Part shown: piece after piece, positions 3,168 through 22,270 of the stretch
How the letters are laid out: each line of letters starts with the position of its first letter
How positions within the stretch are numbered: position 1 is the stretch's first letter
Source of the DNA: an uncultured Candidatus Saccharibacteria bacterium
GTDB taxonomy: Bacteria; Patescibacteriota; Minisyncoccia; Phycocordibacterales; Zambryskibacteraceae
DNA: 64,000 nucleotides
Direction of reading: 5' to 3'
NCBI GenBank assembly: GCA_964642835.1
Contig: CAZXQA010000002.1
Span: 11,875 to 75,874 of the forward strand
Notes under the pieces: model-generated
Seen by the model: the letters and a program-made list of their open reading frames with translations, nothing else
The model's database searches: none
Told to the model about the DNA's origin: nothing
Made by a program: the position numbers and the translations under genes

Positions 3168-5348
3168 ATGGCTAAGAAAAAGAAATCTTCTCGAGACGAC
3201 CAGGGCGCCTCGTCCATCCCCTCCTTACAACTCATCTCCCGTGAGACGCTTAACACTATTTTGGGCATCTTTTCTATCGTTGTCTCTGTCTTCTTCCTCC
3301 TCGCCGCCTTCGGCGCGGGTGGGCGCGCTGGCGCCTTCTCTTATGAGATCCTCGACTACCTTACTGGCGTCGGATACTACCTCCTCCCGGTGGTCTTCCT
3401 CTTAGTGGCCCTCTCTCTTCTCCATGAGCGCGAGCGCAAGTTCGCCCTCCCGCAACTCATCGGCTCTTCCCTCCTCTTCCTCTCAGGTCTCGGCCTCGTC
3501 AACCTTCTTTCCGCGAAGGGCGGCGTCGTAGGCGCTCTTATATCAGAGCCTTTGGTGAACCTTTTTGATGTCTACGTGAGCGCCCTCGCTCTTCTCGCCT
3601 TCTCGACGATTGCCGTTCTCGTCATCTTTGATATCCCTCTCAAACTTAACCTCGGCAAATTCTTCTCTAAAGAGAAGCCGGCGATGGGTCCTGATTCCGT
3701 AAAGGAGAACGCGGCCGTTGAAAAAGCCCTTGAGAAAGTCGCGGAAAAAGAACCCCGCGAGCGCGTGCCAGAGATTCGCGACATGAAGACGAAGAAAGAA
3801 GAGACCGAGCCCTCCTTCCGCCCCGTCTTTACCCGCAAATCCGGCAAGGTGTGGACGCCTCCTCCGATTTCTCTTTTGGAAAAGGATTCCGGCAAGCCAG
3901 GCGTCGGCGACATTAAAGCGAACGCGAACCTTATTAAGAGAACGCTTCAGAACTTCGGCATCGTCGTTGAAATGGATGAGATCTCGATTGGTCCTTCCGT
4001 CACTCGCTACGCCATGAAGCCGGCCGAGGGCGTGAAGCTCTCCAAGATCTTGGGCCTCCAGACAAACCTCGAGCTCGCTCTCGCCGCCCACCCCGTTCGC
4101 ATCGAAGCTCCCATCCCCGGCAAATCTCTCGTTGGTATTGAAGTGCCAAACACCGCAAAGACTACCATCGGCTTAGGTTCTCTCCTCACGGAAGCCACAT
4201 ACACGAACTCCGATAAGCCGCTCCTCGTTGCTGTCGGCAAGGACATTACCGGTGAATCTATCTTTGCCGACATCGCTAGGATGCCGCACCTCCTCGTCGC
4301 CGGCGCCACCGGATCCGGTAAGTCCGTCACCATCCACGCCTTTATCAATTCTCTTTTGTATAGAAATCCGCCAGAGAACCTCAAGTTCATCATGATCGAC
4401 CCCAAGCGCGTCGAACTCACTCTTTATAACGGTATCCCCCATCTCCTTACTCCCGCTATCACCGATCCTAAGAAAGCCATCATGGCCTTGAAGTGGCTCG
4501 GCAAAGAGATGGATCGCCGCTACGACGTACTCGAGAAAGCTTCTGTTCGCGACATTGGTTCGTATCACAAGACGATCTACTTCCCCGCTCTCGAGAAGGC
4601 CAAGGAGGGTGAGGAGCTCCCGTCCGCCATGCCTTACATTGTCGTCGTCATCGACGAGCTCGCTGACCTCATGCAGAGCTATCCGCGCGAACTCGAATCC
4701 TCAATCGTGCGCCTCGCCCAGATGTCACGCGCCGTAGGCATCCACCTCGTGATCGCCACCCAGCGTCCGTCGGTAAACGTCATCACCGGTCTTATCAAAG
4801 CGAACATTCCAAGCCGTCTCGCTCTCCAGGTCGTCTCTCAGATCGATTCACGCACCATCCTCGACGCTCCAGGCGCGGAAAAGCTCCTCGGCGCGGGCGA
4901 CATGCTCTACCAAGGTGGTGATATGGCGAAGCCTACTCGTATCCAGTCGGCCTATATTCGTGAAGCAGAGGCGAAGTCGGTTGTGAAGTATTTGAAGGAA
5001 GCCTACGCTGACGAGCTTCAGGATGAGATCAACTTCTCCGTTGAGAATACCTCAAACGCGATCTTCTCTTCGGGCATCGGGAGCGAGGGTGGCGACGGCG
5101 ATGATGACGATCTCTACGAGGAGGCTCGCAACACCGTCATGGAGGCTGGCAAGGCCTCGACCTCATTCCTCCAAAGGAAGCTCCGCATTGGGTATGCCCG
5201 CGCCGCCCGCCTCATGGATATGCTCGAGGAGCGCGGCGTGATCGGCCCTGGTTCTGGTGCCAAGCCTCGTGATGTGATCGGCGCTTCCCCGGCGGGCGGC
5301 GCGGATGCCGAGTTCGCTGAAGCGGCTGACGAGACATATGTCGGGTAG
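3168..5348 (+). CDS. ftsK: DNA translocase FtsK/SpoIIIE
   Basis: N-terminal TM segments, Walker A GATGSGKSV, and a C-terminal gamma/winged-helix domain (FLQRKLRIGYARAARLMDMLEERGVIG). Confidence 0.92.
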   Translation: MAKKKKSSRDDQGASSIPSLQLISRETLNTILGIFSIVVSVFFLLAAFGAGGRAGAFSYEILDYLTGVGYYLLPVVFLLVALSLLHERERKFALPQLIGSSLLFLSGLGLVNLLSAKGGVVGALISEPLVNLFDVYVSALALLAFSTIAVLVIFDIPLKLNLGKFFSKEKPAMGPDSVKENAAVEKALEKVAEKEPRERVPEIRDMKTKKEETEPSFRPVFTRKSGKVWTPPPISLLEKDSGKPGVGDIKANANLIKRTLQNFGIVVEMDEISIGPSVTRYAMKPAEGVKLSKILGLQTNLELALAAHPVRIEAPIPGKSLVGIEVPNTAKTTIGLGSLLTEATYTNSDKPLLVAVGKDITGESIFADIARMPHLLVAGATGSGKSVTIHAFINSLLYRNPPENLKFIMIDPKRVELTLYNGIPHLLTPAITDPKKAIMALKWLGKEMDRRYDVLEKASVRDIGSYHKTIYFPALEKAKEGEELPSAMPYIVVVIDELADLMQSYPRELESSIVRLAQMSRAVGIHLVIATQRPSVNVITGLIKANIPSRLALQVVSQIDSRTILDAPGAEKLLGAGDMLYQGGDMAKPTRIQSAYIREAEAKSVVKYLKEAYADELQDEINFSVENTSNAIFSSGIGSEGGDGDDDDLYEEARNTVMEAGKASTSFLQRKLRIGYARAARLMDMLEERGVIGPGSGAKPRDVIGASPAGGADAEFAEAADETYVG

Positions 5349-8820: not shown

Positions 8821-9591
8821 CTACCCTACCATACGGAGGGCATTCTCGACAAGGGCTTTCCGAAGCGCCTCAGGGTCCTCGCCCCGCACCTCCGCCAGCC
8901 GCTTGTAGACCTCCTGCACATAGGCTGGCTCGTTCCGCTCACCACGATACGGCTTTGGCGCGACATACGGAGCATCTGTCTCCGCGTGGATCATGCCGAT
9001 GGGAGCGTTTTTGATCACCTCATCGTACTCCGAGGCGAATGTAATGACACCTGTAAATGAGGTCGAGAAACCAAGAGCCCAGAAGCGCTTCGCCTCCTCA
9101 AGCGTCCCCGCGAAGAAGTGAATATTGCCGCGGAGTTTGTCACCGTGAGTAACCTTCAACTCTTCAAGAAGCGCGATCTGCTCGGGATACGCGGCGCGGG
9201 AGTGGATCATAAGCGGCTTGCTATGACGGATGGCGAACTCAACCTGCGCGAGGAAGAGTTCTCGCTGGCGTTCGAAATCCGCCATCTTATTACCATGGAA
9301 AAAGTCGAGACCGCACTCCCCGATCGCCACCGTCTTCGGGTGACGGGCCAAGGCTTCAAAGTCCTCGGGATCAAATTTCCTCAACGGATTGTCGACCGGG
9401 TGCACGCCGACGCAGGCATAGATTTCCGGATACATCTCCGAGAGTTCGACGGCCCGTTTCGACGTCTCCAAATCAGTTCCGACCACAATCGTATGCGTTC
9501 CTGTTTCGCGCAAACGCGCGATCACGGCCTCAAAGTCCGCCTCGTACCCAGGCAGGTTAAGGTGCGAATGAATATCAAAATATTTAGGCAT
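8821..9591 (-). CDS. tatD: TatD-family metal-dependent hydrolase / DNase
   Basis: FDIHSHLN start and HxH..E..H..D TIM-barrel hydrolase motifs typical of TatD. Confidence 0.88.
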   Translation of the reverse strand: MPKYFDIHSHLNLPGYEADFEAVIARLRETGTHTIVVGTDLETSKRAVELSEMYPEIYACVGVHPVDNPLRKFDPEDFEALARHPKTVAIGECGLDFFHGNKMADFERQRELFLAQVEFAIRHSKPLMIHSRAAYPEQIALLEELKVTHGDKLRGNIHFFAGTLEEAKRFWALGFSTSFTGVITFASEYDEVIKNAPIGMIHAETDAPYVAPKPYRGERNEPAYVQEVYKRLAEVRGEDPEALRKALVENALRMVG

Positions 9592-11002
9592 TGAGACGAG
9601 GGAACAGTGGTTGCTCAGGCTTCTGGTTCGCCTTAATAAGAGCCTTAATCTTTGCGGATGTCTCGGGCATGAAGGGGTTAATAAGTCGAGCGATGGAATA
9701 AAGCTCGAGCACGAGAGCCGAGATCACTGCCTGATCCTTTGTCTCCCACGGCTTACTGTCTTGAATCTTTTTGTCCAGGGACCAGATTCTCTTCCAGACA
9801 TACTCGAGAGCGTTCTTTACTTCATAGGCATTGAGGTAGGCAAAATATTCCGACATATCTTCTCTCTCGGGAACCGGTACCGGCGCGGAGAGGTTCGCCT
9901 GAGCCAACGTCATGATGCGAGAGGTAAGATTCCCCAGACCGTTCACGAGGTTCGAGGTGTAGGCAATATTAAAGCTCTCGATACTGACGTCGGTGTCTTC
10001 GAACTGGTTCACCCCCGCCATGAGCACGCGGAACACTTCCCGACCGAAACGCGTCACCATCTCATGCGGCGTAATAAAGTTGCCGAGACTCTTCGACATC
10101 TTTTGTCCGCCAACATTGAGGAAGCCGTGAATAACAATCTGCTTCGAAGGGGTGAGGCCAGCCGAGAGAAGCATCGCCTGCCACATGGCCGCCTGTTGGC
10201 GCACCTGGTCCTTGCCGGCAAATTGCACTACCGGCCACCACTTCTGGAAGTTCGCCGTGTTGTCGGGCCAACCGATGGTCGAGATGTAGTTGGTGAGCGC
10301 GTCGAACCAGACGTACATGACGTGCTCTTCATCATCCGGCACCGCGACACCCCAGGGCATCTTGGACTTCAAACGAGAGATGGAGAAATCTTCGAGTCCC
10401 CTCTCGACGAACTTAATAATTTCGTTAAAGCGGAAATCAGGAATAACGAACTCAGGATTTTCCCGATACAACTTCAAGAGAGGGTCCTGATACTTCGAGA
10501 ACCGGAAGAAATAATTTTCTTCCTCGCGGATCTCAAGATCTTTGTTCGGGTGGAGTGGGCAAACACCATCCACAAGCTCGGAATCCGTCTTCTCGAGTTC
10601 GCAGCCGTTACAATACTTGATCGTGTAATTCTTTTTATAAATATCCCCCGCTTCTTTGCAACGCTTCCACATTTCCTGCGCCGCCATCTTGTGATGCGAA
10701 TCAGTGGTGCGGATAAAGTGAACAATCTCTTCATCAATACCGAGGAGCGCAATGAGTTCCCGGAACTTCGCCGCGTACTCATCCGTATACGCCTGCGTAT
10801 CTTGTCCGGCTTCTTCGGCCTTAGTGTAAATCTTTACTCCATGCTCATCGGTGCCTGTGTTGAAGAAAACTTCTCTCCCCTGGAGCCTCATAGCCCTTGC
10901 CACAACATCGGCGTGAATAAGCTCCATGGCAAATCCGATATGTGGCTCCGCATTCACATAGGGTAACGTCGTCGTGATGTAGAAAGGTTTCTGCTCAGAC
11001 AT
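9584..11002 (-). CDS. metG: Methionyl-tRNA synthetase, minimal form without a C-terminal tRNA-binding domain
   Basis: LPYVNAEPHIGFAME (HIGH), KMSKSLGN, and a CxxC...CPLH zinc knuckle. Confidence 0.93.
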   Translation of the reverse strand: MSEQKPFYITTTLPYVNAEPHIGFAMELIHADVVARAMRLQGREVFFNTGTDEHGVKIYTKAEEAGQDTQAYTDEYAAKFRELIALLGIDEEIVHFIRTTDSHHKMAAQEMWKRCKEAGDIYKKNYTIKYCNGCELEKTDSELVDGVCPLHPNKDLEIREEENYFFRFSKYQDPLLKLYRENPEFVIPDFRFNEIIKFVERGLEDFSISRLKSKMPWGVAVPDDEEHVMYVWFDALTNYISTIGWPDNTANFQKWWPVVQFAGKDQVRQQAAMWQAMLLSAGLTPSKQIVIHGFLNVGGQKMSKSLGNFITPHEMVTRFGREVFRVLMAGVNQFEDTDVSIESFNIAYTSNLVNGLGNLTSRIMTLAQANLSAPVPVPEREDMSEYFAYLNAYEVKNALEYVWKRIWSLDKKIQDSKPWETKDQAVISALVLELYSIARLINPFMPETSAKIKALIKANQKPEQPLFPRLNA

Positions 11003-13404: not shown

Positions 13405-14622
13405 CTATCTTATGAGAGCGGCGAGGTCTGAGATATGAACGCGCTTCTGTTCCCCACTGTCGCGGTCGCGAAGGGTGACAGTATCTTTCTGCTCGGGGAT
13501 TTCTTCACCTAAGGTACCGAAGTCGATCGTAATGCAGAATGGCGTGCCGATCTCATCCTGACGGCGATAGCGCTTGCCAATATTGCCGTTGTCATCAAAC
13601 TCAATATTTGGAATTTCTTTTTTGAGCATTGCGTAAACCTCACGAGCCTTCTCAACGAGAGCGGGCTTATTCTTCAAAAGTGGAAAGACAGCTGCACGTA
13701 CGGGAGCCACATGTTTATGCAATTTCAAATACGCACGAGTCTCTCCTCCCAACTCATCTTCGGTATACGCGTCCGAAAGTACAGCCATGACGAGACGATC
13801 GACACCCATCGTCGGCTCAATGCAGTGCGGCACAAAACGCTCTTTGGTTTCCTCATCGTAATAAGAAAGGTCCGCGCCGCTCTTTTCGGAGTGGGCGTTA
13901 AGATCGTAATCCGTACGATACGCGATACCAAGAAGTTCCTTCTGGCCAAATGGGAAATCGAACTCCGTGTCGACACTGCGTTTGGAGTAGTGAGCTCGAT
14001 CTTCGGCAGGCACGTCGATTTTGTGAATCTTTTCTTTGGAAAGACCGATCTCATCCAAGAATTCCATCTGAGCGGCATGGAGTTCGTCAAAGATCTCATG
14101 AACTTTCTGTTCGTCACGAGGATCGACGAAGTATTCGAGTTCCATCTGCTCGAACTCGCGCTGACGAAAGATGAAGTCACGCGGAGAAATTTCGTTTCTA
14201 AACGACTTCCCAATCTGCGCGATACCGAACGGCAGCGTCGGGTGGAAAGAGTCGAGAATGTTTTTGAAATTGACGAACATGCCCTGCGCGGTCTCTGGTC
14301 GCAAGTGAGAAGTAGTGGCCTCTTCCCCGGTACCCACGCTCACCGCGAAGAGTTCGTTGCCGAAATTGCCAACATGACCAGAGGCCTCAAGGACGCGCGG
14401 ATTACTAATGATCGACGTACTCACCGGGTAAACATCTTCACGACCGGAGACGAATTTGTTCCAGAAGCGCTGCTTAATGTTATGCCTCAGCTCAACGCCT
14501 AAAGGACCGTAATCCCAGAAGCCGGCAATACCTCCATAGATCTCAGAGGACGGGAAAATAAACCCCCTTCTTTTGCAGAGGGATACGATCTTTTCCATCA
14601 GATTTTCCTTATTCTCAGCCAT
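13405..14622 (-). CDS. glyQS: Glycyl-tRNA synthetase, alpha2 (archaeal/eukaryote-like) type
   Basis: Class II aaRS motifs and full-length similarity to alpha2-type GlyRS (CKRRGFIFPSSEIYGG...). Confidence 0.9.
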   Translation of the reverse strand: MAENKENLMEKIVSLCKRRGFIFPSSEIYGGIAGFWDYGPLGVELRHNIKQRFWNKFVSGREDVYPVSTSIISNPRVLEASGHVGNFGNELFAVSVGTGEEATTSHLRPETAQGMFVNFKNILDSFHPTLPFGIAQIGKSFRNEISPRDFIFRQREFEQMELEYFVDPRDEQKVHEIFDELHAAQMEFLDEIGLSKEKIHKIDVPAEDRAHYSKRSVDTEFDFPFGQKELLGIAYRTDYDLNAHSEKSGADLSYYDEETKERFVPHCIEPTMGVDRLVMAVLSDAYTEDELGGETRAYLKLHKHVAPVRAAVFPLLKNKPALVEKAREVYAMLKKEIPNIEFDDNGNIGKRYRRQDEIGTPFCITIDFGTLGEEIPEQKDTVTLRDRDSGEQKRVHISDLAALIR

Positions 14623-16538
14623 TACTTCACCACTATATCATCTCCACGCACAAATGCAGGATCGGAAGGCATCATGGTCGTAAGAGGACCGTTAGTGACG
14701 GTCAAAGGCTTCCCGGAAGCATCGAGCGCGGAGAGCGTAATCCCGGTGACGAGAGTCGGCGTCGTGCCGGCCTGGGAAGCGGCTGGCGTGATGGAAACTT
14801 GGAAGGCCGCTTCTCGCATCTCGTCGCTAAAGCCCGTGCCGGAAGTGACAGTGCCCATGGTCCAGGTCACGGTATTGGTCTTTTCATCATATGTTATGTC
14901 CTCTTCCTTGACGCTCTTTGCGCCCACCCACTTCACGCCAGGTCCCAGGCGCGCAGTGACTTTAGCATTGGTAACATTGCTTTGAGTGTTCCCGACCGAC
15001 CAGAGTACCGCGTACGTGGTGGTTGTTTGCACTTTCGGCGGAGTAGGCCCCGTATTTACAAAAGGTCCCGTCGAGTGAAGCACTTTAGAGCCAAGAGATA
15101 CCTGTGAAGCAATCTTTACCGTGCGCGTCTGCGTAACCTGCACCGGAGTATTGGTGCCTCGCGGGGTGCCACTCATCGTGACGGAGAGTGTGATGCCGCG
15201 ACTGATTTGAAGAGCGGTGAGTTGCGGGAATGAGCTGAAACGGAAAGAGAGTAATCTGCCATCACCAGGCAAGAGGTCATCGAGACCTTCTCCACCGCTC
15301 CAGGTAATCTTCCCACTCGAAGCATCATAGAAACCGCCAGACAACGTCAAGACTGAGCTCGAGTCAAGGGCACTACCGGAGAGCGTGGCTTCGATTCGAG
15401 GATTAAGGAGTTCTTCTGAAAGATTGTTAGCAAAGGAAATCGAAGCGTTAATCGGTTGTCCCGCTGGAGCGATGTAGGTAGTCGAGCTGTCACCGTTCAA
15501 CTTCACAGCCAGAGAAAGAGCTGGGCGCTCAATGGCCACAGTGGTCTGCATAGAGATAAGCACGGTTTTAAAGTTGGCGGATGGCGCGCTGCCGTCGGCC
15601 ACTCCGGCGTAAAATCGAATCGTGCGCTCATCATTATTCTCCCCAGAGAGCGAGCCTGCGATCTGAATTTTCTTCGCGACACCCGGCGAAAGATCCCCGA
15701 GAGCCCAAATATTATTGTCGGCATACGGCGCTGGCGTCGAGGCATTCGACGAATAGCCGTATGGGTACTCCGCTCGAAGCATGACATTCTTCAAAACATC
15801 GGTGGAGTTGAGAGTAATGGTCACCGTGGTGGTGAATGGATCGCCAGAAGCAACCACCGTAGGAGCTTCAACCGTCACAGACAGTGGCGAACTACCAATC
15901 ACGATATTGTAAATTTTATCTTTATAGAACGTAGCGTTCGAACCCGCTACTTTATACTCAATCGAGAATTTAAGCTCCTTTACCTCCCCTGTCTGGCCGA
16001 CGAGTGAGAACTTCACGTTCCGCACAATACTCTGCCCCGCCTTCACCACTCCCAAATCGTCCTTGGCGAACGTGAGCTGCTTGGTGGAATCGAGAGCATC
16101 ACGAGCACCTGAAGGATATTGCACGGAGAAATTGGCGGTCTCAAGGTCCGCGTTGTTGCCATTCTCAATCGTTACTTGAAGTTCGACAACATCCCCCGCT
16201 GGAGAACTGGCTGGCCCCGTCACTTCCAAATTCACGTTCTTGGAAGAAATGAAGTTAGTCCCTCCGAAGAAGACAATGCCCGCCACCGCCACCGTAGCCG
16301 CGAAGAAAAGCGTGGCAAAGACGAAAAACTTCTTGATAAACGGCATCCCACTCGTATTCGTGCGCTCCCGCGCGAGAATGTCGTCGAGCTTCGGCGTCTG
16401 CCAACTCTCAGCCACCCCTGCCGACTCCGCTTCCCGACTGCCGGTCACTGGTCGTGTCCGGTTGAGCGGATCCTCGTACCGCGTGCGCGAATAGAGCGTG
16501 TTATCGAGTCGATCGACCTTGCTCGTGTCGTTGGTCAT
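14622..16538 (-). CDS. Large membrane-anchored surface protein, hypothetical, with Ig-like/CARDB-like repeats
   Basis: N-terminal TM anchor (FVFATLFFAATVAVAGIVFF) then about 560 aa of T/S/V-rich beta-repeat sequence. No catalytic motifs. Confidence 0.6.
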   Translation of the reverse strand: MTNDTSKVDRLDNTLYSRTRYEDPLNRTRPVTGSREAESAGVAESWQTPKLDDILARERTNTSGMPFIKKFFVFATLFFAATVAVAGIVFFGGTNFISSKNVNLEVTGPASSPAGDVVELQVTIENGNNADLETANFSVQYPSGARDALDSTKQLTFAKDDLGVVKAGQSIVRNVKFSLVGQTGEVKELKFSIEYKVAGSNATFYKDKIYNIVIGSSPLSVTVEAPTVVASGDPFTTTVTITLNSTDVLKNVMLRAEYPYGYSSNASTPAPYADNNIWALGDLSPGVAKKIQIAGSLSGENNDERTIRFYAGVADGSAPSANFKTVLISMQTTVAIERPALSLAVKLNGDSSTTYIAPAGQPINASISFANNLSEELLNPRIEATLSGSALDSSSVLTLSGGFYDASSGKITWSGGEGLDDLLPGDGRLLSFRFSSFPQLTALQISRGITLSVTMSGTPRGTNTPVQVTQTRTVKIASQVSLGSKVLHSTGPFVNTGPTPPKVQTTTTYAVLWSVGNTQSNVTNAKVTARLGPGVKWVGAKSVKEEDITYDEKTNTVTWTMGTVTSGTGFSDEMREAAFQVSITPAASQAGTTPTLVTGITLSALDASGKPLTVTNGPLTTMMPSDPAFVRGDDIVVK

Positions 16539-16553
16539 GATTGTTTTATTATA

Positions 16554-17060
16554 TCATTCTCCGGCCAGCTGGCTCTGATGCAATCCCTCATTAATCGCTT
16601 TGACGAGATCTGTTTTCTCGAGAGTAAGATCCTTTTCCTTCAAATATCCCAAGTGGTAGAGCATCGTCGCGACAAAACGCGGCTCAAAAAGCTCATCCTC
16701 AATCTCTGCACTTGTGAGAAACACTTCCACCGCGTCAAAAAGTTCGGCGTGGACCGCCTCACCTTGCACGAGCCTCTCGAGCAAGACGAGTGGTCGCAGC
16801 AAAGCCGGTCTCGCCTTAACGCGAACGTGGGCCTGCGCTGAAGTGATGCGCCAATACTCTTTACCACGTACCAAGGACACGTTTGCAAAGGCCACCGGTT
16901 CCAAGGAGCCGCGTAATTTGGAAGTGCTCTTACGTACGCCTGTCGCGGTCGCTCGCACGAGTCCTAGATCACGAGTAAGGATGGAGTACACTCGGTCTGC
17001 CTCCCGTAGCGGACGCTCCGAGAGCACGAGACCCTTGGTGGTGTAGATGTGGTACGACAC
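16554..17060 (-). CDS. recO: DNA repair protein RecO, short form lacking a zinc-finger tail
   Basis: N-terminal OB-fold similarity to RecO (YTTKGLVLSERPLREADRVYSILTRDLGLVRATATGVRKSTSKLRGSLEP) and a C-terminal LYHLGYL helical region. Confidence 0.72.
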   Translation of the reverse strand: MSYHIYTTKGLVLSERPLREADRVYSILTRDLGLVRATATGVRKSTSKLRGSLEPVAFANVSLVRGKEYWRITSAQAHVRVKARPALLRPLVLLERLVQGEAVHAELFDAVEVFLTSAEIEDELFEPRFVATMLYHLGYLKEKDLTLEKTDLVKAINEGLHQSQLAGE

Positions 17061-20000
17061 TAGAAGTCGATATTGCCCGCTTTCTTGATTTCAAGAGCGT
17101 GAGCGGCAAAGAAGGCTTCTTCACCTGCCGGCACCGTGTACGCCGCCCTCTCTCCCGGTTTCAAGTTATTTGTTTTCCTCCATTCCTGAACCGAGCGGAT
17201 CACGTCACGCACCTTCCCCTCTTCGATGAGCGCAGGGGTGAGCGTCGTATCCAAGAACACCTCTTCCACAAGAGACGGATCGCTCACCACTTCCTTCACA
17301 TTGATCTCATCTTTAATGATGTCTTGGTATTCTGCGGCGAGCTGCAAACTCTTCACTGCCAGCTTTGCTAAAGGTTGGCGCACTTTGATATTGGCCTTAG
17401 AGCGTAGTTCCAAGGCGAGTGAGACGAGGCGGCGAGTTTCGGCCATGTGTTCGAGCACAACGGGTTTCTTTTCTGATGTGAAGCGAGCAAGGAGAGATTT
17501 CTTCTTTTCTGTCCACGTGGTGAGGTGCACACTCACAGGCTCATTGTCTTCTCTGACCTTTTGATATATTTCCTCGGCCATAAACGGCATAATCGGCGCC
17601 ATGATCTTCGAGAGCTCCTTGAAGACATATCGCGACGTCGCGAGAGCGTGCTGCTTGTCTTCTTTATCCTCTCCCTTAAACCTGTCACGAGAACGCCTGA
17701 CGTACCACGTCGATAGATCGGCCACGAAGTCCTTGATCGGCCGACTCGCACGCACGAGATCATACGCCTCGAGCGCCTCCGTCACTTCCTTCAATAATTC
17801 TTCCAAGCGAGCCAAGATCCAACGATCAAGCACACGCGGGCTCTTCTCGCCATTCGCAGGCGTGCCATCAGCGTAAAGCTCGTAGAAGGTGAAGGTGTTG
17901 GCGAGGATATTGAGCAGACGGTTATGAACGTCTTTCACCTCTTCGTCCTTAAACGACGCGTCCTCGGCCTGCATGACGACGGAAGACATGAGGTAGTAAC
18001 GGAAGGCGTCGGCCCCGATGGTGTCGAGAAGAATAAGTGGGTCGGTGTAGTTCCCTTTCGACTTACTCATCTTCGAACCATCCTTCGCCAAGATGTTACC
18101 GGTCGTGATGACGTTCGTGAATGCCGGTTTGTTGAAGAGCATAACCGCGACGACATGCATGTAGTAGAACCACGTGCGCGTCTGAGCGATATACTCCGCC
18201 ACAAAGTGGCCAGGGAAATGATGCTTGAACGCTTCCTCGTTCTCGAAGGGATAGTGGTATTCGGCAAAGGGCATGGACGCTGACTCCACCCAGCCGTCGA
18301 TCACTTCTGGAATACGCTTCAAGGGCTTACCCTCTTCTGTCACAAGCTCTACTTCGTCGATGTAAGGGCGATGAAGATCGAGTTCGAAGTGCTTGTTATG
18401 AGGCAAGGGCACGAACGATAATTCGCGAACCTCCGCATTCGTAAATTTCTTAAAGTCACCCACCTTAGGACTCTGATTTTCAGGACGATACCACTCTGAG
18501 TGCTCCGCGCCCATAGACTGCCCTAACCCGATCATGGTGAGCATCCATGCGGGAGTGCTATGAGTGCTGATAAGGATATTTTTGCCTTGGTATTTCTTTT
18601 CAAGATCGTAAAGGAATTCTCCTACGCGGCCACGAATGTCGGTCAATGATTCACCCTCCGGCACAGATGCCGTGAGAGGGTTTTCCTTCGTGTGTTCTGC
18701 TAAGCCGAGGTGATATTCCTTATAAGATTTGCCGTTGTAGATACCTGCGTTGATTTCTCCGATCCGAGAATCATATACAACAGCATCCTTTGGAAGTCCG
18801 AACACATCGGCCGCGATCTCTGCCGTTTCTTTAGCACGTACAAAATCTGAAGTAATAATTACGTCGATGTTATTCCCCGCAAGTTGAGCCGCCGCTTTTC
18901 TCACCTGCTCTTTCCCCACATCAGATAGGCGGTCATATTCATGACCTACGGTATTGGCAACAATCTCTTTTGCATTACTGAGACTTTCTCCATGTCTTAT
19001 AGCAAAATAGCGGTTCCCTGATTTCTTGGCATATTTCTTAAAGTCGTCGAGAGAGCCAACGACTGTCACCTTGCCGTTTTCGTCCTTCCAGATTGGCAGA
19101 GGCGCCGCCCAGTAGCGGTTACGGGAGATCGTCCAGTCCGGCGCGTTCTCGACAATGTTCAAGAAGCGGCCGTGCTTTAAGTGAGCCGGGAACCAGTTCA
19201 CCTCTTCATTGAGAGCAATCATGCGATCTTTCACCTTCTGAATATTGAGGAACCACGAAGAGATCGCGTTATAGAGAAGTGCCGTACCGCAGCGGTGACA
19301 ATGCGGATACGAGTGGGTATGCATCTCACGCTTATAGAGCAAGTGTCTTGTTTCCAGATCTTCCTTCACGAGCTTCTCCGCTTTTTTGAAGTATTGCGTG
19401 CGGATAAATTCCGGCGCAAGCGCGTTAAAGTGCCCCGCTCCGTCGAGCAGCTGAATCATCGGTAAATCGTTCTTCAATCCCAGAGCATAGTCGTCTTCAC
19501 CATAAATCACGGCGGTGTGCACGAGTCCCGTGCCGTCGGTAGTCGTCACGAAATCGGCTTCCGTTACGTACCAGCCCTTCTTCCCCGTTTCGCGAGCAGC
19601 CGGAATTTCATAGAGCGGCTCATATTCCATGCCGATCATCTCGCTTCCTTTGTGCTCGGCCACTACTTCATACGGCTCAGTAAGCACGGAGAGGCGCTCT
19701 TTAGCGAGAACGAGAATTTCCTTCCCTACTTTGGCCTCCACATAATCAATATCTCTCCCCACCGCGAGCGCCACGTTCCCCGGCAAGGTCCACGGCGTCG
19801 TTGTCCACGCGAGGAAGTAGGCATCCGGGAACGCTTTGATTTTAAATTTCACGTAGACCGACTCTTCGGTGACGTCGCGGTAACTGTTGTCCATCGCCAC
19901 TTCTGCCTTGGCGATTGGCGTCTGGCAGTGCGGACAATAGAGCAAAACTTTTTTACCCTCATAGAGAAGACCCTTCTCGTCCATCTTCTTCAAGGCATGC

Positions 20001-20485
20001 CAAACGCTCTCGATGTACGTGTTGTCCATCGTCTTGTAGGCGTTGTCGTACTCGACCCAGCGACCGACGCGGTCAACATATTTCTTCCACTCATGCGCGT
20101 ATCGCATGACAGAAGCGCGGCACGTTTCGTTAAAGGCTTCGATACCGATCTTGCCTTCGATCTCTGTCTTATCTTTAAGACCGAGCTCTTTCTCGATCAT
20201 GTTCTCGATTGGCAAGCCGTGGCAGTCCCAACCCCAGCGACGACGCACATGGTAGCCTTGCATCGTCTTGTAGCGAGGGATGACGTCTTTAATCACGGAG
20301 GAAAGGAGACTCCCGGCGTGAGGCAACCCCGTCGCGAATGGCGGCCCGTCATAGAAAGTGAATTCCCCTTTCGGCGCCTCTTTCTCGAGACTCTTTTCGA
20401 AAATGTGATTCTCCTGCCAGAACTTCAAAACCGCCTCTTCCTTAAGAGCGCGCTCGGACTTGGGATTGGTGTGGGTGGTATCCAT
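17060..20485 (-). CDS. ileS: Isoleucyl-tRNA synthetase, eukaryote-like type 2, with an in-frame histidine phosphatase (PGM-like) domain insertion
   Basis: FYDGPPFATGLPH...WGWDCHGLPIE, KMSKSKGN, and an editing domain. ATG at 20485 chosen; the ORF track's 20533 is a TTG in the leader. Residues about 507-715 contain an RHGES histidine-phosphatase fold. Confidence 0.9.
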   Translation of the reverse strand: MDTTHTNPKSERALKEEAVLKFWQENHIFEKSLEKEAPKGEFTFYDGPPFATGLPHAGSLLSSVIKDVIPRYKTMQGYHVRRRWGWDCHGLPIENMIEKELGLKDKTEIEGKIGIEAFNETCRASVMRYAHEWKKYVDRVGRWVEYDNAYKTMDNTYIESVWHALKKMDEKGLLYEGKKVLLYCPHCQTPIAKAEVAMDNSYRDVTEESVYVKFKIKAFPDAYFLAWTTTPWTLPGNVALAVGRDIDYVEAKVGKEILVLAKERLSVLTEPYEVVAEHKGSEMIGMEYEPLYEIPAARETGKKGWYVTEADFVTTTDGTGLVHTAVIYGEDDYALGLKNDLPMIQLLDGAGHFNALAPEFIRTQYFKKAEKLVKEDLETRHLLYKREMHTHSYPHCHRCGTALLYNAISSWFLNIQKVKDRMIALNEEVNWFPAHLKHGRFLNIVENAPDWTISRNRYWAAPLPIWKDENGKVTVVGSLDDFKKYAKKSGNRYFAIRHGESLSNAKEIVANTVGHEYDRLSDVGKEQVRKAAAQLAGNNIDVIITSDFVRAKETAEIAADVFGLPKDAVVYDSRIGEINAGIYNGKSYKEYHLGLAEHTKENPLTASVPEGESLTDIRGRVGEFLYDLEKKYQGKNILISTHSTPAWMLTMIGLGQSMGAEHSEWYRPENQSPKVGDFKKFTNAEVRELSFVPLPHNKHFELDLHRPYIDEVELVTEEGKPLKRIPEVIDGWVESASMPFAEYHYPFENEEAFKHHFPGHFVAEYIAQTRTWFYYMHVVAVMLFNKPAFTNVITTGNILAKDGSKMSKSKGNYTDPLILLDTIGADAFRYYLMSSVVMQAEDASFKDEEVKDVHNRLLNILANTFTFYELYADGTPANGEKSPRVLDRWILARLEELLKEVTEALEAYDLVRASRPIKDFVADLSTWYVRRSRDRFKGEDKEDKQHALATSRYVFKELSKIMAPIMPFMAEEIYQKVREDNEPVSVHLTTWTEKKKSLLARFTSEKKPVVLEHMAETRRLVSLALELRSKANIKVRQPLAKLAVKSLQLAAEYQDIIKDEINVKEVVSDPSLVEEVFLDTTLTPALIEEGKVRDVIRSVQEWRKTNNLKPGERAAYTVPAGEEAFFAAHALEIKKAGNIDF

Positions 20486-20722
20486 AGTGTGAAAAATAAA
20501 AACTCGTCGCTGAGCAGAAATAATTCTGCGCAAGGACGAGTTTTCACCCGTGGTACCACCTTGATTTTTACCCGCCTTTGGCGGGGCTTCTCATTCACAG
20601 CTATACCGGGCTTACCCGTCGGGTTCTACACAGCTTTCGCCTTTCTTCCCGAAGCTTGCCCGCCGCTCTTTCTGGCGGGCTTGGGAGTGATTAGTTCCCT
20701 TAACGCGTATGCACCCACTATA
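20486..20722 (-). promoter_or_regulatory. T-box riboswitch leader with intrinsic terminator upstream of ileS
   Basis: Minus-strand RNA contains AUCAAGGUGGUACCACGGG, matching the T-box consensus GGUGGNACCGCG. This is followed by a terminator hairpin (ACUCGUC...GACGAGU, forward 20501..20544) and a U-run. A hairpin resembling stem III (CCCGCC-aaa-GGCGGG) lies just 5' of the T-box. A candidate AUC(A) specifier is at 20689..20691. Confidence 0.75.
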
Positions 20723-22270
20723 TCACATTCGCTCAGGCGCCGGAATACCGAGCACCGTGAGGCCGTTTTTCATTACTTGTTTGAAGGCCTTGGTGACGGC
20801 GAGGTTATGCGCATCTTCTGCAATTCTCTCGTGTGCATAGAAGTTATTAAAGGCTGAGGCTAGTTCGGTGAGATAGGTCACGATGTAGTTCGGCGCGTAT
20901 TCTGCACCGGCGCGCTCAATGATTTCTGGGAATCGGTAAAGCAACTTTTCAATAAGTCGCACGTCTTCTTCCCCTCTCCTTACGTCTAGGAGAGGGGTTG
21001 GGGTGAGGTTTGATTTCTCAATCACTGAACAAGCGCGCGCATAGGCGTACTGGAGATACACCCCCGAGTCACCTTCGGTGGAAACCGATTTCTCGAAGTC
21101 GAAAATAATATCCTGCCCGATCCCTTGGCGAAGGATCATGTACTTCACCGCGGCAATGGCGACCCGCTCATCGCCCTTCACATGTTGCTTCACTTCCTCA
21201 ATGAGAGATTCCGCGGTAATGATATTCCCCGTGCGTGAGCTCATCTTCCCGGTCGGAAGGCGGAGCATGCCGTGCGGGAGGTGCTTGGTCTTTGTAGCGA
21301 GGTCTGGGTAAATCAAACCAAGTGCCGCGAGCATGACGCGGAAGTAATCCTTGATCTCATTCCCGGTTACTACTACTGAGAGATCGTACGGGTAGGTATC
21401 ATATTTGTTCTTCGCGTTCCCTAAGTCCTTCGCCTCATACGTTGGGATACCTTGGGAGTTGATGAAGACGCGAGTGTGAAGAGAGGGATCAACGTTCTCA
21501 CCCTTAAAGACGATGGCACCGTCTGACTCTTCGAAGACCTTCCCCACATTTTCTCTTACAATCTTCTCCCCGATCGGCGCCGTGTCAGATTCGAAGAAGT
21601 AATAATCGAAGTGGCTCCCGAGTCTCTTGTACATCTCTTCAAAGGCCGCGAGACTTACTTGCTTCCCTTTTTCATACACGGTATTTACCTCCGCGTCAGT
21701 GCCTGCGTAAATTGTTTTGTTAAGCGCTTCGATCTCTGCCTTGGCACTCAAGTCTTCCTCATAGGCCTTACTGCCCGCCGCGTAAGCTTCTTTCTCTGGC
21801 ACGCCTTTAAGCATCGCGTATACAGCCTTCGCCACATGCAGACCCTTGTCGCCTTGGTAGTTAGCCTGCTTCACCTCTGCCCCGTTCCACGCGATAATTC
21901 GCGCGATAGTTGAGCCGATAACGTTTGGCATCAGGTGACCGATATGAAATTCCTTAAATGGGTTAGGGTCGGTATGCTCGACCATGACCTTATATCCCTT
22001 CACGTGCGCACCCTTCCCGAACTCATCCCCCTTCTCGATAATCTCTTCCGCGCTATTTTTGAAAAATGTTTTCGAGAGATAGATATTGATAAACCGACCG
22101 CTCGCAAGTTCGAGCTTCTCGATTTCATCCACATGCGCTAGCTCGAGCTTCGCGAGGTCTTCTGCCGCCGTCTTCACGTCCGCGATAATCGTATAATCGC
22201 CATTCTTAATATCCTTGGGGTGCACCAAGGTGATCTTCCGACCTAAAATTGCTTCGAGTTTTTCTTTCAT
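20723..22270 (-). CDS. argS: Arginyl-tRNA synthetase
   Basis: HIGHLMPNVIGSTIARII HIGH region and full-length ArgRS similarity. Confidence 0.92.
   Translation of the reverse strand: MKEKLEAILGRKITLVHPKDIKNGDYTIIADVKTAAEDLAKLELAHVDEIEKLELASGRFINIYLSKTFFKNSAEEIIEKGDEFGKGAHVKGYKVMVEHTDPNPFKEFHIGHLMPNVIGSTIARIIAWNGAEVKQANYQGDKGLHVAKAVYAMLKGVPEKEAYAAGSKAYEEDLSAKAEIEALNKTIYAGTDAEVNTVYEKGKQVSLAAFEEMYKRLGSHFDYYFFESDTAPIGEKIVRENVGKVFEESDGAIVFKGENVDPSLHTRVFINSQGIPTYEAKDLGNAKNKYDTYPYDLSVVVTGNEIKDYFRVMLAALGLIYPDLATKTKHLPHGMLRLPTGKMSSRTGNIITAESLIEEVKQHVKGDERVAIAAVKYMILRQGIGQDIIFDFEKSVSTEGDSGVYLQYAYARACSVIEKSNLTPTPLLDVRRGEEDVRLIEKLLYRFPEIIERAGAEYAPNYIVTYLTELASAFNNFYAHERIAEDAHNLAVTKAFKQVMKNGLTVLGIPAPERM

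Follow-up and report, generated by a model that had tools for sequence, protein, structure and literature searches.

What is a phosphatase doing inside an isoleucyl-tRNA synthetase (IleRS)? This question is raised by a 64,000-nucleotide stretch of contig CAZXQA010000002.1 (assembly GCA_964642835.1), deposited as an uncultured Candidatus Saccharibacteria bacterium; this whole stretch is referred to here as the window. Its ileS gene, on the minus strand, carries an in-frame segment that a preliminary description of the DNA had assigned to the histidine phosphatases and had regarded as a genuine domain fusion. Our analysis confirmed that the nested phosphatase is real and that it is a clade-wide feature rather than a private oddity. 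The gene, the nested segment, and the part of it that matches the family profile are the following.

17063 to 20485, minus strand: gene of a type-2 (eukaryote-like) IleRS of 1141 amino acids (aa), stop codon at 17060 to 17062 (TIGR00392, Protein Data Bank [PDB], AlphaFold2, Foldseek)

18392 to 19027, minus strand: nested histidine phosphatase cassette, aa 487 to 698 (KKSGNRYFAIRHGES ... FVPLPHNK; alignment to PDB entry 8c8v, Pfam, AlphaFold2, Foldseek)

18515 to 19003, minus strand: Pfam His_Phos_1 match, aa 495 to 657 (converted from residues 511 to 673 of the open reading frame)

The minus-strand open reading frame at 17060 to 20533 is an IleRS. With the ATG at 20485 as the likely start, the product has 1141 aa, and a public protein collection contains an entry identical to it (P0170). 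The NCBIfam model TIGR00392 (ileS) matched it with 815.3 bits (cutoff, 621.4 bits) although the match is split by the insert. Pfam recognized the catalytic domain in two halves with His_Phos_1 between them, as well as Anticodon_1 and DUF5915. The best sequence matches in the PDB were the IleRS2 of Priestia (P.) megaterium (8c8v; E = 6.5e-208) and the Thermus thermophilus enzyme (1ile), and Foldseek placed the protein on IleRS2 with E = 2e-75. The characteristics of type-2 IleRS were thus all found, namely, the editing domain in connective peptide 1 (CP1), Anticodon_1 with DUF5915, and IleRS2 as the best PDB and Foldseek match. The preliminary description had stated that the IleRS motifs flanking the insert are intact, and this holds: both CP1 editing motifs, WTTTPWTLP and GTGLVH, are present, as is KMSKS (aa 805 to 809; window 18059 to 18073), whose positions are invariant or nearly so in 104 relatives. 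The first class I signature reads HAGS (H56-A-G58-S59; window 20309 to 20320, minus strand) instead of HIGH. Among the 104 closest relatives, its first His and third Gly are invariant and Ser occupies the fourth position in at least 90%, and we read HAGS as a noncanonical variant of the H-x-G-x signature type. Other insert-bearing IleRS have HYGH (L011, L016, L046) or a signature of the G-x-H-H type (L020, L023, L029). Taken together, the window gene is predicted to encode a functional type-2 IleRS.

The insert comprises 212 aa (487 to 698) that have no counterpart in 8c8v, where about 4 residues stand in their place. In an alignment of 81 IleRS, the corresponding slice spans 246 residues in the window protein and 37 to 61 aa in enzymes that lack the insert. 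The interval originally singled out, 18389 to 19015, reads in frame from NRYFAIRHGES to PLPHNKH, and when translated alone, it matched histidine phosphatase models only. The profile search that had been suggested as a check, with His_Phos_1 (PF00300), gave E = 2.3e-28 and 99.6 bits (gathering cutoff, 21.7 bits). A further suggested check, structure prediction of the full protein by AlphaFold2, gave a mean predicted local distance difference test (pLDDT) value of 86.8 and a predicted template modeling (TM) score of 0.80. In this model the insert folds confidently: it and both junctions are mostly above a pLDDT of 90, and the loop at 660 to 677 is the only disordered stretch. The insert modeled alone reached 85.4. 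Its Foldseek matches in the PDB (4ij6, 9mmh, 6e4b, and 1h2e; E = 1e-14 to 1e-11; TM score, ~0.7) and further structural neighbors comprise PspA, a riboflavin pathway phosphatase, CobC, GpgP, PhoE, and TIGAR. Profile and structural comparisons hence confirm the nested domain as a predicted branch-1 histidine phosphatase with a PhoE/PspA/CobC-like fold, for which the small-molecule type is nearest in both sequence and fold.

The narrower family assignment made initially, that of a phosphoglycerate mutase/CobC/SixA-like domain, stands only in part. Membership in branch 1 and the likeness to CobC-type enzymes were upheld, whereas the mutase and SixA labels were not. All NCBIfam equivalog models scored the insert below their cutoffs, including those for mutases (dPGM_arch, 73 versus 225 bits; pgm_1, 20 versus 82 bits; GpmB, 52 versus 261 bits) and those for CobC (72.5 versus 162.9 bits), PspA (62.9 versus 350 bits), and SixA (29.6 versus 74.5 bits). 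On these scores, calling the domain a mutase is unwarranted; by the equivalog standard, it is not a CobC, PspA, or SixA either, and therefore no substrate can be transferred to it by homology. The best NCBIfam match, at 80 bits (cutoff, 326 bits), was NF005567, the Rv2228c-type bifunctional RNase H/acid phosphatase. In these proteins a CobC-like histidine phosphatase is likewise joined to an enzyme of nucleic acids, but the two are arranged end to end and not nested, and the partner enzyme differs.

The preliminary description had also pointed to an RHG motif and to a C-terminal segment with Thr and His; both are part of a complete catalytic set, which is distributed over four motifs.

18983 to 18997, minus strand: RHGES, with the nucleophile His498 and Arg497 (invariant in 45/45, 104/104, and 63/63 sequences)

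18824 to 18844, minus strand: FVRAKET, with the second phosphate-binding arginine, Arg550 (invariant)

18743 to 18763, minus strand: IGEINAG, with the general acid Glu577 (invariant in 45/45)

18554 to 18571, minus strand: ISTHST, with the second catalytic histidine, His642 (invariant)

The residues that define the family, Arg497, His498, Asn504, Arg550, Glu577, and His642, are all kept. Three sets of sequences were inspected. (i) In 45 nested and free-standing relatives of 30 to 45% identity, no substitution occurs at R, H, G, R, E, and H, and Asn is present in 43. (ii) In 104 close sequences, R497, H498, R550, and H642 never vary; N504 and E577 are conserved in at least 90%. (iii) A more diverse set of 63 sequences shows no exception for R, H, R, E, and H. 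The small branch-1 phosphatases PspA (4ij5), CobC (6e4b), PhoE/YhfR (1h2e), and HFP (9mmh) share the fold, the size, and the catalytic set RHG...N...R...E...H with the insert at 24 to 26% sequence identity; unlike these stand-alone enzymes, the window domain is nested in a synthetase, and its cap region is variable among relatives. From this conservation we infer that the nested domain is a catalytically competent phosphomonoesterase.

That the fusion is genuine, and neither an intein nor an assembly error, was borne out by several observations. In the Logan assembly of run SRR14271366, which is independent, an identical protein of 1141 aa is encoded amid the same neighboring genes (locus L085); a misjoin is therefore very unlikely, and we discarded an assembly chimera. 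An intein was ruled out as well, since Pfam detected no Hint or intein domain in the window IleRS and the residue after the junction PHN varies and is not a nucleophile: the window has K there, and relatives have E, A, R, D, G, and others. Inteins require Cys, Ser, or Thr next to their C-terminal junction. The third check, inspection of orthologues, showed how widespread the architecture is. We searched 1.8 billion cluster representatives with the insert plus 33-residue flanks (281 residues) at E values of 1e-30 or below, and 112 clusters at 50% identity matched, most of them over all 281 residues without a break. PF00133 and PF00300 occur together in all of the 120 most similar 90%-identity clusters among the matches listed. 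In GTDB genomes, taken as one per species, the insert is present in frame at the same site in ~45 of 80 loci among the matches listed, all of which are from Patescibacteria of the Paceibacteria group (labeled Zambryski-, Nomura-, Vogel-, Kaiserbacteria, and similar). In the loci examined from Woesearchaeota, Clostridia, Bacteroidota, Berkelbacteria, and Portnoybacteria, the IleRS lacks it. Many GTDB loci bear the title "uncultured Candidatus Saccharibacteria" (L001, L003, L004, and many more); their IleRS groups with Zambryski- and Nomurabacteria types, and these titles look unreliable.

The site of insertion differs from that first proposed. A domain of about 200 aa inserted in frame was correctly recognized, but it does not interrupt the catalytic core strands: it enters the loop of a four-cysteine knuckle (CxxC...CxxC) between the motifs WxxPLPxW and ELDLHRPYID...EVxDxW. 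In the numbering of P. megaterium IleRS2, this point corresponds to residues 478 to 483, and the second half of the catalytic HUP core spans residues 513 to 632 (Brkic et al., PMC10485003). The site is therefore in connective peptide CP2, just ahead of the core; the insert precedes the second half of the Rossmann/HUP core by ~30 residues and lies outside its strands. Three segments border it.

19028 to 19099, minus strand: left half of the former zinc knuckle (PLPIWKDENGKVTVVGSLDDFKKYA), CxxC or CxC in relatives, without cysteine in the window

18296 to 18391, minus strand: right half of the former zinc knuckle (HFELDLHRPYIDEVELVTEEGKPLKRIPEVID), CxxC or CxC in relatives, both cysteines gone

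18395 to 18409, minus strand: PLPHN junction motif, leading from the phosphatase C terminus back into IleRS (F691, P695, and H696 in at least 90% of insert-bearing IleRS)

The window protein and its near relatives have kept none of the four knuckle cysteines. Some other insert-bearing IleRS retain them, and in some lineages the zinc site must therefore have been lost after the insertion. The cassette is framed by conserved junctions, with SGN-x-YF-x-RHG at the entry and F-x-PLPHN...ELDLHRPYID at the exit. PLPHN is missing from IleRS without the insert and from free-standing phosphatases, which end in ...E(I/L)(R/K)EL. The window enzyme thus has the CP1 editing domain, KMSKS, and the type-2 C-terminal domains in common with P. 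megaterium IleRS2 (8c8v/8c8u; the mupirocin-resistant type) and 1ile, but it differs from 8c8v and 1ile in having a 212-aa phosphatase in place of ~4 residues of the CP2 knuckle, no knuckle cysteines, and HAGS instead of HxGH.

As to where the domain came from, the closest free-standing homologues of the insert (31 to 38% identity) align from the N-terminal strand to the shared C-terminal ...E(I/L)(R/K)EL. The genes of all six (P0001, P0002, L034, L052, L054, and L072) are located between argS and ileS. In five cases, the phosphatase gene abuts an ileS that lacks the insert (L054, L034, L052, L081 to L083 [P0002], and L086 [P0001]), with gaps of a few bases where these were read off; in L072 there is one extra gene on either side of the phosphatase, and a 489-aa gene separates it from ileS. 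The order in L081 is argS-hp-ileS-x-recO, where hp is the histidine phosphatase gene. In the window, argS is followed directly by ileS, with the phosphatase inside the latter.

20723 to 22270, minus strand: argS, directly upstream of ileS (Pfam tRNA-synt_1d and DALR_1 in the identical locus L085)

A rough neighbor-joining tree united nested and argS-linked free-standing phosphatases in one group, apart from other histidine phosphatases. The neighbor-joining trees were star-like and contradictory; the free-standing genes grouped as a single clade close to the base of the domain tree, and in the IleRS tree the insert-less Staskawiczbacteria and DPANN enzymes nested among insert-bearing ones. Taken together, these comparisons indicate a phosphatase clade whose members invariably accompany class Ia synthetase genes, either as separate genes between argS and ileS or as domains nested in IleRS. 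It is well supported by gene order and similarity that the nested domain descends from, or is sister to, the free-standing operon gene beside ileS. An apparent IleRS remnant upstream of the free-standing gene, obtained by tblastn in L034, would have implied duplication and decay; the extension crosses stop codons and the end of argS and is therefore noise. Concerning the host enzyme, DPANN IleRS (L039 to L051, L067, L070, and L074; Woesearchaeota and others) fell inside the Patescibacterial radiation, beside Staskawiczbacteria, in the rough and not robust neighbor-joining tree, which suggests an interdomain transfer of ileS.

Comparison of the window with its closest relative (L001/P0171) revealed that the two parts of the gene have different histories. 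The IleRS bodies are 97% identical at the protein level, whereas the inserts share 43% identity. For the body, the rates of nonsynonymous (dN) and synonymous (dS) substitution were 0.023 and 0.52, respectively (dN/dS, 0.044). The breakpoints are sharp: the flanks are identical up to ...KKSGN, and likeness resumes at ...ELDLHRPY. At conserved residues, 18 of 25 four-fold degenerate sites differ within the insert versus 79 of 278 outside it (Fisher test, P = 2e-5). The GC content at third codon positions (GC3) is 0.46 in the insert and 0.67 in the rest of the gene, in which windows of the same size were all higher (0.62 to 0.73). The GC3 anomaly recurs in L001 and L006, and most other genomes are compositionally matched. 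Other protein pairs gave body versus insert identities of 94 versus 42%, 92 versus 42%, and 91 versus 48%, and in some pairs the insert was more alike than the body. In accordance, the domain tree conflicts with the IleRS tree. The L001 cassette is 77% identical to that of P0178; by contrast, no donor of the window cassette was found among the sequences compared, in which no relative exceeded 46% identity.

Two other routes to this pattern were considered. Rapid evolution in situ seemed conceivable from the insert dN of 0.59, which is close to the dS of the flanks, yet it was rejected because the four-fold sites are saturated in the insert and its GC3 is foreign. Gene conversion from a nearby paralogue was discarded, since there is no other His_Phos homologue in the 64-kb window. 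The simplest reading of the comparisons is recombination anchored on the conserved junction motifs, which would have imported cassettes from distant, lower-GC Paceibacteria. That the phosphatase domain is a modular, laterally exchanged cassette, with a synthetase body untouched by the swaps, is well supported by these sequence data.

Two further features of this region were recorded. (i) A 20-nucleotide direct repeat (window 19026 to 19045 and 18438 to 18457) is identical at 17 of 20 positions, with 13 nucleotides exact and a spacing of 588 nucleotides. One copy encodes DFKKY immediately ahead of the insert and the other encodes DFKKF close to the C-terminal end of the insert; the repeat is absent from L001. 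By our own estimate, ~0.006 exact 13-mer repeats are expected by chance per 900 nucleotides. The repeat may have been left by the recombination that brought in the window cassette, or it may be a coincidence. (ii) A second patch of low identity to L001, at 17426 to 17515 (aa 991 to 1020; 60% nucleotide identity compared to ~90% in neighboring windows), corresponds to the linker ahead of the last C-terminal domains.

The phosphatase is not confined to IleRS. P0109 is a valyl-tRNA synthetase (ValRS) with at least four divergent phosphatase domains that are 33 to 51% identical among themselves, and a follow-up search retrieved ~25 further Patescibacterial ValRS clusters with PF00300. In the ValRS P0295, the phosphatase is within the homologous knuckle (...WYGHRIPVWYCAGCG...[phosphatase]...CEKCG...DTLDTWFSSG, that is, CAGCG...hp...CEKCG). 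The linkage to class Ia synthetases thus takes three forms: a neighboring gene, a domain nested in IleRS, and a domain nested in ValRS. The ValRS gene of L087 (2609 to 6480) has two phosphatase copies and was called in three pieces, possibly due to an alternative genetic code or frameshifts. P0290 is another Patescibacterial ValRS with His_Phos_1. Some Patescibacterial IleRS carry, in addition to the phosphatase, domains of other kinds; the Pfam scan of long representatives covered 16 of 63.

CP1 of IleRS: NUDIX domain, in L046 (~3319 to 3750)/P0165

IleRS loop after WFESGS: P-loop kinase-like domain (AAA_18/AAA_33), in P0136

IleRS loop after WFESGS: GNAT domain, in P0075

IleRS C terminus: HD domain, in L023 (~9238 to 9846)

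IleRS editing region: IS200-like Y1 transposase, in P0075

The rare variants with NUDIX, HD, and P-loop kinase domains suggest a nucleotide or phosphate theme. A precedent for an extra enzymatic domain is NF040702, an IleRS with an N-acetyltransferase domain; the added domain there is GNAT and not a phosphatase, and the window protein is not a member (303 bits versus a cutoff of 1999), whereas P0075 has both His_Phos_1 and GNAT.

What, then, might the domain do? The reading that we favor, to which we assign a probability of roughly 40%, is that the nested phosphatase is active and works with the synthetase by dephosphorylating one of its ligands. An active phosphatase would be held beside the mouth of the synthetic site, would cooperate with the synthetase rather than ride along as an unrelated passenger, and would strip a phosphate monoester from something that the synthetase binds. 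The leading candidate would be a nucleotide or a tRNA acceptor end whose 3' or 2' phosphate blocks aminoacylation, such as a CCA end pyrophosphorylated by a toxSAS from which the outer phosphate has gone or the ends left by RNA-cleaving toxins; any specific substrate is a guess and far less probable than cooperation as such. In Escherichia coli, the HD domain of the CCA-adding enzyme has phosphatase activities to which a role in healing tRNA ends has been attributed. A phosphorylated CCA end cannot be charged, and this block is reversed enzymatically (Kurata et al., 2021, bioRxiv 10.1101/2021.04.30.441581). The small alarmone hydrolases that remove the toxSAS pyrophosphate in that study provide a functional analogy only, since they are free-standing enzymes of an unrelated HD fold that act on pyrophosphate, whereas the window domain is a nested histidine phosphatase.

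A number of points weigh against this reading. (i) The closest solved structures handle small metabolites (phosphoserine, alpha-ribazole phosphate, a riboflavin intermediate, and glucosyl-3-phosphoglycerate), not RNA. (ii) Histidine phosphatases remove monoesters, and a pyrophosphorylated or cyclic-phosphate end would need a prior enzyme. (iii) Unrelated genes also keep their order in these small genomes, as recO does after ileS, so that synteny alone is weak. (iv) Cassettes that are 40% identical replace one another, which shows that they have no finely coadapted interface with the IleRS body. (v) The knuckle loop may simply be a permissive site of insertion. (vi) Recombination between paralogues could account for the ValRS case.

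The most serious alternative, doubtful in our view but quite possible, is that a housekeeping phosphatase of small molecules (a sugar phosphate, phosphoserine, or a nucleotide) was captured from the neighbor of ileS into a permissive surface loop; it would be independent of aminoacylation, and the fusion would ensure coexpression only. The metabolite phosphatases among the structural neighbors and the failure to reach any NCBIfam equivalog agree with this, as do the presence of the unrelated genes recO and dut in the same conserved neighborhood and the interchange of ~40%-identical cassettes with an unchanged IleRS body, for which no specific interface is needed. A mere passenger, however, accounts poorly for the finding that the closest free-standing relatives occur only between argS and ileS (6/6), for the same kind of domain at the homologous ValRS site in up to at least four copies, or for the retention of the fusion across more than 100 deeply diverged clusters. 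In addition, both junctions are modeled with high confidence as rigid, without flexible linkers. Cooperation with the synthetase could also take the shape of a built-in repair or counterdefense activity that strips phosphates derived from toxins, phage defense, or damage from the acceptor end or from the synthetase itself, such that conflict would drive the turnover and multiplication of cassettes in IleRS and ValRS; in this particular shape we consider it unlikely.

A protein-directed role in conflict appears distinctly less probable. Here, the domain would reverse an inhibitory phosphorylation of the synthetase, by HipA-type kinases, or of another translation factor, and an arms race would drive its turnover. 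Class I synthetases are targets of HipA-type toxin kinases, which phosphorylate them close to the ATP site. In favor of this possibility, the His_Phos_1 family includes the protein phosphatases SixA, PGAM5, and Sts-1. Cassette replacement and a variable cap resemble conflict systems, and the domain is multiplied in tandem in ValRS. On the other hand, a kinase partner was not seen in the window or in the loci, the SixA score is far from its cutoff (29.6 versus 74.5 bits), the nearest folds are metabolite phosphatases, and a HipA-like targeting of IleRS or ValRS is our own extrapolation. We regard as very improbable a noncatalytic module, i.e., a phosphate- or RNA-binding or scaffold domain that grips, for example, the tRNA 5' phosphate, with hydrolysis being irrelevant. 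The domain replaces a zinc knuckle whose cysteines were later lost in many lineages and may have assumed its structural role, but the full catalytic set is invariant down to 30 to 40% identity, which binding alone would not demand. Hardly any weight is given to a selfish or neutral mobile cassette that spreads by recombination at its flanking motifs, in the manner of intein homing, and persists because precise deletion is rare. Sharp-edged lateral replacement, foreign GC3, the use of a homologous conserved site in two paralogous essential genes, tandem arrays, and the 20-nucleotide direct repeat near both insert edges would fit such an element; yet Pfam assigned neither an endonuclease nor a Hint or transposase function to the cassette, its catalytic residues are under strict purifying selection, and the free-standing versions are stable operon genes. 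An artifact, either a chimeric metagenome assembly or a spliced-out intein, has the atypical composition of the insert as the sole point in its favor and is next to impossible given the identical independent assembly, the hundreds of homologous genes that share the architecture, and the missing intein signature.

Two genes beyond the 3' end of ileS complete the description of the locus. For the 638-aa open reading frame, a membrane segment is predicted at the N terminus, and no Pfam match is on record.

16554 to 17060, minus strand: short open reading frame 3' of ileS, matching recO of the related locus L081 by position only

14622 to 16538, minus strand: 638-aa open reading frame past ileS

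In literature searches, we found no published description of a histidine phosphatase nested in IleRS, and the words "phosphatase" and "Patescibacteria" do not occur in a 2026 survey of ~96,000 IleRS sequences and domain architectures. The architecture itself has been in public databases since the first genomes of the candidate phyla radiation, for example, as P0220, under the bare name "Isoleucine-tRNA ligase." That synthetases can bear extra domains is already known; new are the nested and apparently active histidine phosphatase, its recurrence in ValRS, and the exchange of cassettes. Aminoacyl-tRNA synthetases are among the best-studied enzymes, and a whole bacterial class carries an apparently active phosphatase in the catalytic region of IleRS and, in some members, of ValRS too. 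Even if the domain is a passenger, this is a clean natural case in which a domain has been inserted into an essential gene and swapped as a module, of use for protein engineering and for understanding genome economy in ultrasmall bacteria. If it is coupled to charging, it would represent a new auxiliary activity of synthetases, namely, substrate repair, detoxification, or product removal, and the exchange of cassettes would then point to selection by biological conflict on a core enzyme of translation.

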